Assembly (NCBI GenBank): GCA_022447855.1
Contig: JAKUTX010000008.1
Coordinates: 3,987 to 67,986, forward strand
DNA: 64,000 bases
Reading direction: 5' to 3'
Origin: SAR202 cluster bacterium
Lineage (GTDB): Bacteria; Chloroflexota; Dehalococcoidia; Lucifugimonadales; UBA6927
In this document: positions 19,070 through 21,087 of the stretch, piece after piece
Numbering within the stretch: the stretch's first letter is position 1
How the letters are laid out: every line of letters starts with the position of its first letter
The notes under the pieces: generated by a model
What the model was told of the DNA's origin: nothing
The model's database searches: none
What the model saw: the letters and a program-made list of their open reading frames with translations, nothing else
Made by a program: the position numbers and the translations under genes

Positions 19070-20341
19070 TCATAATTCTTGACGAATTTCAGCAGCTTCA
19101 GCGTGACCATGTAATCCTTCGGCTTTCGCAATAATTGATGCAGATGCAGACAAATCCCGTGACTGTTCATTATCAAAAGATACGATAGGAATAAATTTTA
19201 AAAATGTATGAATCCCAATTCCCGAATTAAATCTAGCCGTACCATTAGTTGGCATTACATGACTTGGTCCAGCAACATAATCACCCAAAACCTCATGAGA
19301 AAATTCACCCACAAAAATCACTCCAACATTCTTGATTTCATCTAAAAACATTTTTGTATCATCAACTACTAAACTTAAATGTTCTGGAGCAAATTGATTA
19401 GTCAGATCAATAGCATCTTCTAGATCATCTAAAACAGCTATCAAACCTCTATTTTCAATTGATTTACTTGCAATAGATCCGCGAGTCATCAACCCTAGGC
19501 GAGTTTCAATTTGGCTACTCACTTCTTGGGCTAATTGATGGGAATTAGTAAGCATAGTTGCCCTTGCAAGGACATCGTGTTCTGCTTGTGCCAAAAGATC
19601 AGCCGCACACATCGTAGGATTGGCTGATGAATCAGCTATAAGAAATGTTTCTGTTGGGCCATACAATCCATCTATTCCAACTTCCCCAAAAAGCATTTTC
19701 TTAGCTAAGGTGACATAAATATTGCCAGGACCGCAAATCAAATCAACTTTTGGAATCGTTTGAGTCCCAAAAGCCATCCCAGCAATAGATTGAGCTCCAC
19801 CAACAGAAAAGATTCTATCTACTCCAGCGATATCAGCTGCTGCAAGAACCATATCATCAAGTTTTCCATCTTTTGACAACGGTGTACACATTATTATTTC
19901 TTCTACCCCTGCCACTTTTGCAGGAATAGCAGTCATTAATACTGTTGATGGATAGCTTGCTGTCCCTCCAGGAACATAAACACCCACACGTTGAATAGGT
20001 ACAATTTTTTGACCTAAACCTTCTCCAGAATTACTCCAACCCTGAAGCAAACATTTTTGATGAAATGTTGTAATACGTTGTGCAGCCAATTGTAAAGAAT
20101 CAAATAAATCCCTTGAAATGTTGTTTTTTGCATTTTTTATTGTACTTAAATCAACTTCAATACACTTCAAAGGAATACCTTCAAATTTTTGGGTCAAATT
20201 TATTAACGCCTCATCTCCGTCATTACGAACATATTGAATTATTCCTTCAACCGATTTTGTATAAGAAGAAGAATTCTCTACTATTCCTCGTTCGGACATC
20301 AAAATAGTTCTAGCATCTTCAATTCCACTAACAATCTTCAT
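19070..20341 (-). CDS. hisD: histidinol dehydrogenase
   Basis: 423 aa. GPGNIYV, AQAEHD and EGLHGHA motifs. The start overlaps the upstream gene's stop (ATGA). Confidence 0.95.
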   Translation of the reverse strand: MKIVSGIEDARTILMSERGIVENSSSYTKSVEGIIQYVRNDGDEALINLTQKFEGIPLKCIEVDLSTIKNAKNNISRDLFDSLQLAAQRITTFHQKCLLQGWSNSGEGLGQKIVPIQRVGVYVPGGTASYPSTVLMTAIPAKVAGVEEIIMCTPLSKDGKLDDMVLAAADIAGVDRIFSVGGAQSIAGMAFGTQTIPKVDLICGPGNIYVTLAKKMLFGEVGIDGLYGPTETFLIADSSANPTMCAADLLAQAEHDVLARATMLTNSHQLAQEVSSQIETRLGLMTRGSIASKSIENRGLIAVLDDLEDAIDLTNQFAPEHLSLVVDDTKMFLDEIKNVGVIFVGEFSHEVLGDYVAGPSHVMPTNGTARFNSGIGIHTFLKFIPIVSFDNEQSRDLSASASIIAKAEGLHGHAEAAEIRQEL

Positions 20342-21087
20342 ACGGAGTACTTCCTTATTTTCAAAACCATTAATTCAACTGTATTATTTTCATAATCTTG
20401 GAATACCGACCTTGGCACTAATTCAAATAATTGGCTTAAGCCCAAAGAAATATCTTTCAAAAAAATTTCGGCTGTCCGGTGAACACTGTTCGTATCATCA
20501 CCTCTAGAAATCCTGCGAGCCATAAATCTCAATCTATCCCAAGAAAATCCTCTCCCAATAAATCCACATACCCAATTACTCCATTCTTCAATTAAATCAG
20601 ACTCTATAAATTCTAAATTTAAATTCTTATAATCTTCAGATTGAATTGTCCCAACAAAATCATAATCTAATTTCCAGAAAGCTCGATCTAAATTCAATTG
20701 CATAGCACGATCCAGGATTAACCCTTCATTGATATCAGGAAATAATGTCAAACTAGCAAAATACTTCCTAAAAACTTCAGAAATCCAGCATTCATCTGCA
20801 ATCAAATGAGTAATGTAGCCGGAAATAAATGCTTGTAATTGAGAATCCATTTGTGAAAAGTTTGATAGAGTTGGATAGGACTTAAACATGTTGTCTATAC
20901 CATCTCCAACATCTTTAAAATCCAATTGGACAAAATGATATACTGACCGGTCAACTTTGGTGATTACTCGAATGTCAGGGCTAGTAGCACCTAAAAGAAA
21001 TGATCCAAGATGTGCGTTAATTATCGGAGAATCTAATTGTTTAGAAACTTCAAGCGCAAATTTTAAATGAGTGGGCAAATTGGGCAT
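20338..21087 (-). CDS. zinc-dependent phospholipase-C-fold (metallo-phosphoesterase) family protein, function unknown
   Basis: 249 aa. The N-terminal MPNLPTHLKFA, GATSPD, YHF and ITHLIADE spacing resembles the His/Asp metal ligands of the Zn-dependent PLC family. Embedded between hisG and hisD. Confidence 0.5.
   Translation of the reverse strand: MPNLPTHLKFALEVSKQLDSPIINAHLGSFLLGATSPDIRVITKVDRSVYHFVQLDFKDVGDGIDNMFKSYPTLSNFSQMDSQLQAFISGYITHLIADECWISEVFRKYFASLTLFPDINEGLILDRAMQLNLDRAFWKLDYDFVGTIQSEDYKNLNLEFIESDLIEEWSNWVCGFIGRGFSWDRLRFMARRISRGDDTNSVHRTAEIFLKDISLGLSQLFELVPRSVFQDYENNTVELMVLKIRKYSV

Follow-up and report, generated by a model that had tools for sequence, protein, structure and literature searches.

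A histidine operon-linked variant of the phospholipase C/P1 nuclease superfamily as a candidate phosphohydrolase of histidine biosynthesis in uncultured Chloroflexota

What is a gene recorded as a zinc-dependent phospholipase C doing in the middle of a histidine operon? The question is raised by a 64,000-nucleotide (nt) stretch of a SAR202 cluster bacterium genome (assembly GCA_022447855.1, contig JAKUTX010000008.1), here called the window, in which a gene that we call X, at positions 20338 to 21087, lies between hisG and hisD and encodes a protein of 249 amino acids (aa). The histidine pathway has two phospho-hydrolytic steps, the conversion of phosphoribosyl-ATP (PR-ATP) to phosphoribosyl-AMP (PR-AMP) and pyrophosphate by HisE and that of histidinol phosphate to histidinol by histidinol-phosphate phosphatase (HolPase), and an earlier note on this DNA had put X forward for the second of them. 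On balance, the analysis presented here leads us to favour the view that his-linked X proteins are an unrecognised enzyme family doing one or the other of these steps, on a phospholipase C (PLC)/P1 nuclease scaffold re-engineered for the cytoplasm by means of an N-terminal proline and an Asp-Arg-Gln triad.

The locus itself is easily read. The minus-strand gene order is hisZ-hisG-X-hisD-hisC, then 1,055 nt without long open reading frames (ORFs), and then hisB. The TAG of hisG is followed by 11 nt (GTTGGTAATAA, 21088 to 21098) and by the ATG with which X starts. At the other end, the junction with hisD reads gtATGAag, the TGA of X overlapping the ATG codon of hisD (ATGA, 20338 to 20341), an overlap that couples the translation of X to that of hisD. 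Spacing and overlap are as the earlier note had described them, and so is the 249-aa ORF with the motifs quoted for it: PTH (H7), GATSPD (33-38), YHF (50-52) and THLIADE (93-99) are all present. An identical protein has been deposited as MCH2307664.1, annotated 'zinc dependent phospholipase C family protein' of SAR202 cluster bacterium, and is also found in Tara Oceans data; the marine SAR202 metagenome-assembled genome (MAG) to which the window belongs has a G+C content of 36.5%. Compared with its orthologue in the related locus L005 (78% identity), X has a ratio of non-synonymous to synonymous substitution rates (dN/dS) of 0.14, the flanking his genes giving 0.07-0.16. X is a real gene under purifying selection, constrained like its his neighbours.

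Does the company that X keeps in the window extend to its relatives? The homologues (n=337) are almost all 248-254 aa long, and their source names are all Chloroflexi, Chloroflexota, Dehalococcoidia or SAR202; the family is small, with 489 matches at E≤0.001 among 1.84 billion cluster representatives. Wherever the upstream gene can be seen, in about 170 loci, X stands immediately downstream of hisG, and all of the loci long enough to judge read hisG-X-hisD bar one (L092), in which hisD does not intervene and the order is hisG-X-hisC. In 84 loci from species-representative genomes and assemblies the order is hisZ-hisG-X-hisD-hisC-hisB wherever the contig is long enough, and it is the same in 80 further metagenome loci, found in a scan with the A3 alignment, that represent a second clade whose X is about 25% identical to that of the window. 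On short contigs with divergent members, X follows a short-form hisG and precedes hisD (L088, L091) or is overlapped by a long hisG (L093). An apparent order hisG-hisD-X in L102 was rejected as an ORF-calling artefact in high-G+C DNA. In nearly all loci the stop codon of X and the start codon of hisD overlap (the 4-nt overlap is repeated in L001-L004, and other clades overlap by 1-10 nt), with hisG-X spacers of 4-275 nt.

In a distance tree the his-linked proteins form three clades, A1 (including the window), A3 and a tight marine clade around protein P0368, which are roughly equidistant at ~25% identity and come from genomes of 34-72% G+C; the most remote homologues form the outgroup and are not his-linked (L086, L089). 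Because three divergent clades are linked while the remote outgroup is unlinked, his linkage belongs to a defined X subfamily, and not to the whole family or to one recent lineage. Phylogenetic co-occurrence with his operons was one of the checks proposed when X was first pointed out, and the ~170 loci in the three clades are all his-linked. The hisG-X-hisD arrangement is far beyond chance, and X very probably serves the histidine pathway.

We consider it quite unlikely that X has nothing to do with histidine and that inheritance alone holds it in the operon. In favour of such an explanation, the operon does tolerate foreign inserts between hisD and hisC (a gene of the FAA-hydrolase family, glutamine synthetase, transposases), and the unlinked state of the most remote homologues would fit it. 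However, these inserts are sporadic compared with X, the linkage of which has been kept across three clades, ~25% identity, genomes of 34-72% G+C, three HisG architectures and one altered gene order. The codon overlap with hisD is conserved as well, and D126, R127 and Q130 are common to the his-linked proteins and lacking in the unlinked homologues.

The unlinked homologues have surroundings of their own. P0240 is surrounded by glycosyltransferase genes. P0262 (289 aa; L086 8001-10027, also in L087) ends where the gene for a type-2 isopentenyl-diphosphate isomerase, which it overlaps, starts (TIGR02151, 406.7 bits); this suggests that P0262 is a paralogous phosphohydrolase linked to isoprenoid diphosphate metabolism.

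What kind of enzyme might X be? Pfam places it in PF00882 (Zn_dep_PLPC) with E=1.1e-9 and 38.9 bits, above the cutoff of 26.8, through a match that covers residues 6-100 only (profile positions 1-95 of 167) without insertions or deletions; some his-linked relatives are borderline by that cutoff (P0375, 26.6; P0368, 22.1). No NCBIfam model matches X, and a match to RctB_central (E=0.03) was rejected as chance. The same Pfam family contains B. cereus PLC (1AH7, the sequence we compared being 100% identical to the PDB entry) and the N-terminal domain of C. perfringens alpha-toxin, which like X are all-alpha. Pfam aligns 1AH7 residues 13-192 to PF00882 positions 1-165, and through these coordinates H7 of X falls on H14 of 1AH7 (profile position 2) and D98 on the computed position of D122. 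Three pairs of motifs can be matched, G33-x4-D38 of X with G50-x4-D55 of 1AH7, S48-x2-H51-F with F66-x2-H69-F, and G90-x3-H94-x-I-x-D98 with G114-x3-H118-x-L-x-D122. Judged from these alignments, H7, D38, H51, H94 and D98 of X correspond to H14, D55, H69, H118 and D122 of the B. cereus enzyme, of which D55, H69, H118 and D122 are the Zn1 ligands and H14 and D122, with the amine and carbonyl of the N-terminal residue, the Zn3 ligands. In PLC and P1 nuclease the matching residues bind Zn1 and also Zn3, to which the N-terminal residue is a further ligand. The putative Zn1 and Zn3 ligands of X stand in the same order as those of PLC, with similar spacing and flanking residues.

The putative ligands are also strictly conserved. 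Invariant in all 36 family sequences compared, outgroup included, are P2, H7, G33, P37, D38, R47, H51, G90, Y91, H94, D98, F110 and W169, so that the whole Zn1 set of D38, H51, H94 and D98 is without exception. By contrast, the Zn2 site of PLC, the ligands of which are H128, H142 and E146 in 1AH7, has no counterpart in X: its histidines are absent, no conserved histidine follows D98, and the C-terminal 150 residues of X are unrelated to PLC. The his-linked clades share D126-R127-x-x-Q130, and the outgroup has H-N-x-x-R at those positions.

The two proteins differ in their destination too. PLC is secreted, with a processed Trp1, and attacks lipids, whereas X, found in the context of amino-acid biosynthesis, starts MPNLPTH, and its N-terminus is invariably Met-Pro; a cleaved signal peptide is impossible in X, as the first metal ligand is at residue 7. 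X is predicted from this to be cytoplasmic and to lack a signal peptide. The P1/S1 nucleases (PF02265, of the same superfamily), known for phosphodiesterase and 3'-phosphomonoesterase activity, resemble X in having five residues from the N-terminal ligand to the first histidine (W1 to H6 in P1, P2 to H7 in X) and in their H-x3-D motif, but there is no detectable sequence or structure match between them and X lacks the third-site histidines.

The three-dimensional evidence is less telling. The AlphaFold model of X, built from an 18-sequence alignment, is all-alpha and confident, with a predicted local distance difference test (pLDDT) score of 92.7 and a predicted template modelling (pTM) score of 0.90. 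A Foldseek search of the PDB with this model gave no neighbour at E≤0.001; the highest TM-score among the matches listed was that of the C. perfringens alpha-toxin 2wy6 (query TM-score 0.35, probability 0.2, E=2.8, rank 27 by E-value). A profile of the X family matched no PDB sequence, and hhalign, hmmsearch and hmmalign gave no usable alignment between the family and B. cereus PLC. It is through the Pfam profile and the motifs that X is linked to characterised PLCs. The zinc-dependent PLC fold claimed in the earlier note is therefore borne out in part, by the profile and the motifs, and finds no echo in the PDB, where the confident model has no significant neighbour. We class X as a divergent, his-dedicated variant of the PLC/P1 superfamily and not as a phospholipase C, because neither the third metal site nor secretion is found in it.

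These features can be combined into a working picture of the protein. X would be a cytoplasmic, metal-dependent phosphohydrolase, a divergent branch of the PLC/P1 nuclease superfamily dedicated to making histidine in SAR202 and other Dehalococcoidia among the uncultured Chloroflexota. It would keep the two-metal core, in which we infer the identity of the metals, and Pro2, freed by removal of the methionine, would probably be the N-terminal metal ligand where the secreted enzymes use their mature Trp1, a change that would fit a scaffold otherwise secreted for work in the cytoplasm. The third zinc site appears to be replaced by the D126-R127-x-x-Q130 triad, which may shape substrate binding or specificity.

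Which of the two hydrolytic steps would such an enzyme serve? The first candidate is HolPase (EC 3.1.3.15), X being a new family of this activity on the PLC/P1 scaffold that passes histidinol to the coupled HisD, a possibility that we regard as real but rather doubtful. The window speaks for it. Its operon covers step 1 and the late steps 6, 7 and 9/10 and has no gene for step 8. The 199-aa HisB (imidazoleglycerol-phosphate dehydratase, 16319 to 16918) is monofunctional, as had been noted, Pfam finding IGPD only, at residues 33-176. Nor is any known HolPase visible in the cluster, and of the 52 ORFs of 150 aa or more in the window, the 36 that were scanned likewise have no PHP, inositol monophosphatase (IMPase) or HAD domain. 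A HisB N-terminal domain was not found near any X locus by tblastn and blastp with an unverified query sequence. For the window taken by itself, the reasoning of the earlier note towards HolPase is sound. Further afield, the overlap of the X stop with the hisD start in nearly all loci would suit this role, and in L092 the downstream neighbour is hisC, whose product makes the substrate of HolPase. The PLC/P1 superfamily includes phosphomonoesterase activity, as in the 3'-nucleotidase activity of P1 nuclease, and the conserved acidic residues E99, D126 and D134, joined by the arginines R47 and R127, would suit a substrate that bears an amine and a phosphate.

X would not be a disguised member of a known HolPase family: no HAD, PHP, IMPase or SerB-like similarity was detected in it, Pfam giving PF00882 only and NCBIfam nothing. 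What the PHP (HisK/HisJ) and HAD (HisB N-terminal, SerB-like) HolPases have in common with X, as predicted, is that they depend on metal to hydrolyse a phosphate ester of the his pathway; there is no homology between them, and the metal site of the PHP enzymes is also trinuclear. The step is moreover the commonest unfilled gap in amino-acid biosynthesis, of low confidence in 28% of 148 prototrophs (PMC7311316) and still missing in 20% of 208 (GapMind 2026 preprint). No paper linking PF00882 proteins to histidine was found, which agrees with the earlier remark that such a role had, to the writer's knowledge, not been described for this fold.

The evidence that tells most against HolPase comes from the marine Chloroflexi of the third his-linked clade, represented by a Tara metagenome contig and MAG GCA_002710905.1 (L097/L098; 34% G+C). 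Their operon reads hisZ (254 aa)-hisG (456 aa, tandem-duplicated)-X-hisD-hisC-hisB-hisN, the last being a 250-aa Inositol_P gene that begins 45 nt after hisB or, in the NCBI call, overlaps it. Its product scores 198.6 bits (E=1.2e-58) with NCBIfam TIGR02067, 'histidinol-phosphatase HisN', below the strict equivalog cutoff of 275, and the next family scores 89.9 bits. When the HolPase sequence criteria of Kulis-Horn et al. 2017 (PMC5516325) are used, the protein carries the HolPase-specific motif 5 as RGFGDFYGH, to be compared with RAYGDFYGY and LLGGDCYNY in experimentally confirmed HolPases (PMC5516325), as well as motifs 1 (K-Q-D-D-S-L-V-T-N-A-D), 2, 3 and 6; GEE and the metal motif DPxD[GA]T are present, and motif 6 has no glycine at the discriminating position. 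By this published sequence test the protein is identified as a bona fide HisN.

X is intact beside it. In L097/L098 it retains every invariant, catalytic and subfamily-specific residue, and its root-to-tip branch length in the distance tree is similar to those of other clades. The relatives of this HisN are 73-77% identical and the X proteins of the clade 75-88%; since these spreads are comparable, the coexistence of the two appears not to be recent. X and HisN, both his-operon-linked phosphatases in Chloroflexota if our prediction for X holds, have unrelated folds, and their distribution in L097/L098 is not complementary, both being in one operon. Two isofunctional enzymes in a single operon of a 34% G+C genome are unlikely, and we therefore argue that the two have different jobs. 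X as a simple non-orthologous replacement for HolPase does not stand up to this operon, and to see in X no more than the 'missing' HolPase is probably wrong.

Other observations pull the same way with less force. In L014 and L015, of clade A1, a very divergent IMPase-like ORF (IDPFDGSGLF) lies between hisD and hisC, to which we give little weight because HisN motif 5 is absent, and NCBI gives the name histidinol-phosphatase to proteins from at least some Dehalococcoidia MAGs (P0407). On the other side, HisN-like proteins can serve other roles when another HolPase is present, as does the HisN-like protein of Rhodanobacter, which is a phosphoserine phosphatase (GapMind 2026 preprint).

Since one clade has HisN for the HolPase step and all three share the specificity residues, elimination points to the HisE step, and the reading that we put forward, tentatively, is that X is a non-homologous analogue of HisE, the PR-ATP pyrophosphohydrolase (EC 3.6.1.31). 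X would hydrolyse PR-ATP, the product of HisG, to PR-AMP and pyrophosphate, step 2 of the pathway. Gene order is the other foundation of this still uncertain assignment: X is always next to hisG in three clades only ~25% identical, while the downstream gene may change, as to hisC in L092, and adjacency of hisE and hisG is the rule in Actinobacteria. The native chemistry of the PLC/P1 enzymes is attack on diester-type phosphorus, and the alpha-phosphate of PR-ATP is such a centre; the non-his paralogue P0262, coupled to the type-2 isopentenyl-diphosphate isomerase whose substrates are diphosphate esters, presumably meets compounds of this kind. Searches with tblastn and blastp, again with unverified query sequences, found no hisE, hisIE, hisA or hisF in the window or in the 7-10 kb around any of 178 loci. 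A HisE/MazG match (PF01503) in X was sought in Pfam and NCBIfam, and none was found. The likeness would be one of office: like HisE or MazG-type DVU1186, X would be a small, all-alpha, metal-dependent hydrolase that acts directly after HisG, but HisE is a four-helix bundle with glutamates that bind Mg, X has a His/Asp site instead and there is no sequence similarity. The HisE gap is recurrent, being missing in 9% of prototrophs (GapMind 2026 preprint), and one non-orthologous substitution of HisE is already on record, that by the MazG-type phosphoribosyl-ATP diphosphatase DVU1186 (PMC5764234).

Several points weigh against a HisE role. To our knowledge no pyrophosphatase occurs in the PLC/P1 superfamily, in which phosphomonoesterase activity is known (the 3'-nucleotidase of P1 nuclease). 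X is coupled more tightly to hisD, by codon overlap, than to hisG, from which it is separated by 4-275 nt, and tight coupling to hisD fits HolPase because the product of HolPase feeds HisD. The class Dehalococcoidia probably had HisE ancestrally, since the cultured Dehalococcoides are reported to have separate, unfused hisI- and hisE-type genes, with 0% HisIE fusion (PMC1963479). We slightly favour HisE over HolPase, in a ranking of the two that is not secure; the claim of X to HolPase is weakened by the coexistence with HisN.

It is also conceivable, though we think it improbable, that X has some other his-related role, such as removing pyrophosphate or a side product to draw the unfavourable HisG reaction forward, clearing a damaged or mis-phosphorylated intermediate, or acting as a metal-dependent partner of HisZ-HisG. 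The HisG/HisZ systems that adjoin X are atypical in the window and in other clades, X is never separated from hisG, and coexistence with HisN poses no problem for a role of this sort. However, the invariant metal ligands and the conserved triad indicate defined catalysis on a defined substrate, cells possess a general pyrophosphatase, and an accessory enzyme of such a kind would be without precedent in his operons.

The neighbours of X in the window are themselves clearly assigned. HisZ, the ATP phosphoribosyltransferase regulatory subunit (22093 to 23289, 398 aa), matches Pfam tRNA-synt_His, has no anticodon-binding domain and has TIGR00443 as its best NCBIfam model; HisG (21099 to 22088, 329 aa) is the long form with a C-terminal regulatory domain (Pfam HisG and HisG_C; NCBIfam TIGR00070 and TIGR03455). 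The pair (21099-23289) is atypical, since the HisG that HisZ accompanies is itself long-form and has retained a C-terminal regulatory domain. The HisG of the two other clades has 456-469 aa with a tandem-duplicated catalytic unit (L094 8576-9985; L097 7857-9991), and the HisZ of L097 is cut down to 254 aa. Downstream of X lie the genes for histidinol dehydrogenase (hisD, 19070 to 20341, 423 aa; Pfam Histidinol_dh, E=1e-149) and histidinol-phosphate aminotransferase (hisC, 17974 to 19053, 359 aa; Pfam Aminotran_1_2), the latter in a position conserved in all loci.

Between hisC and hisB, the 1,055 nt without a long ORF (16919-17973) are matched by ~40 nt in the closest relative, L005, and look like an insertion inside the operon. 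The stretch contains three copies of GGACGTTGTGA (minus strand) and other short repeats; on the opposite strand, at 17528-17743, a 71-aa ORF has a hydrophobic composition suggesting two membrane helices and no family match. The sole Rfam match there is sub-threshold (MDR-NUDIX, 24 bits against 54.9), and scans with Rfam and for promoters and terminators gave nothing relevant. Just past hisB, a gene for a DUF3105 protein (15346-16035, 229 aa) lies between purC and purS; as its position is shared with L002-L004, it seems to be tied to the purine cluster in these genomes. Immediately upstream of hisZ, on the same strand, are a 442-aa enolase-superfamily (MR_MLE_C) gene and a 318-aa ORF without a Pfam family (23474-25775), and ~6 kb upstream of the operon two adjoining genes on the minus strand encode tRNA-Arg(TCG) and tRNA-His(GTG) (29111-29279).

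Elsewhere in the X operons, the hisD-hisC junction is a hotspot of insertion (L006, L058, L014, L015, L026, L028, L030), where the inserted genes include a 2-oxopent-4-enoate hydratase-like gene of the FAA-hydrolase family (L006, L058), glutamine synthetase (L030) and transposases (L026, L028). L061 and L062 have an insert between hisC and hisB, which in L061 is a 538-aa ORF that, judged by eye, resembles an FAD-dependent oxidoreductase. In about 11 of the 80 metagenome loci of clade A3 an alpha/beta hydrolase of the YghX/dienelactone-hydrolase family (230 aa; L094 13826-14518) is encoded 3' of hisB on the same strand.

Whichever step it serves, X would be a new analogue, a case of non-orthologous enzyme recruitment in the his pathway that the present data place in uncultured Chloroflexota only. 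Neither a prior description of a his role for PF00882 proteins nor auxotrophy data for Chloroflexi, Dehalococcoides or SAR202 were found in the literature, and the GapMind supplements do not list the his status of Dehalococcoides. The protein is short and soluble-looking and should be amenable to standard complementation and phosphate-release assays. If our interpretation is correct, a long-standing hole in the pathway of SAR202 and other Dehalococcoidia would be filled, and the PLC/P1 superfamily would gain its first biosynthetic role, with a cytoplasmic branch beside the secreted toxins and nucleases. HolPase and PR-ATP pyrophosphatase are among the four steps behind most of the gaps still unexplained in how prototrophs make their amino acids (GapMind 2026 preprint), and gaps of this sort cause metabolic models built on metagenomes to call auxotrophy falsely. 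SAR202 and other Dehalococcoidia are abundant and mostly uncultured, and their nutritional independence is therefore judged from models of this kind, which a dedicated and easily recognised marker gene for one step would correct.

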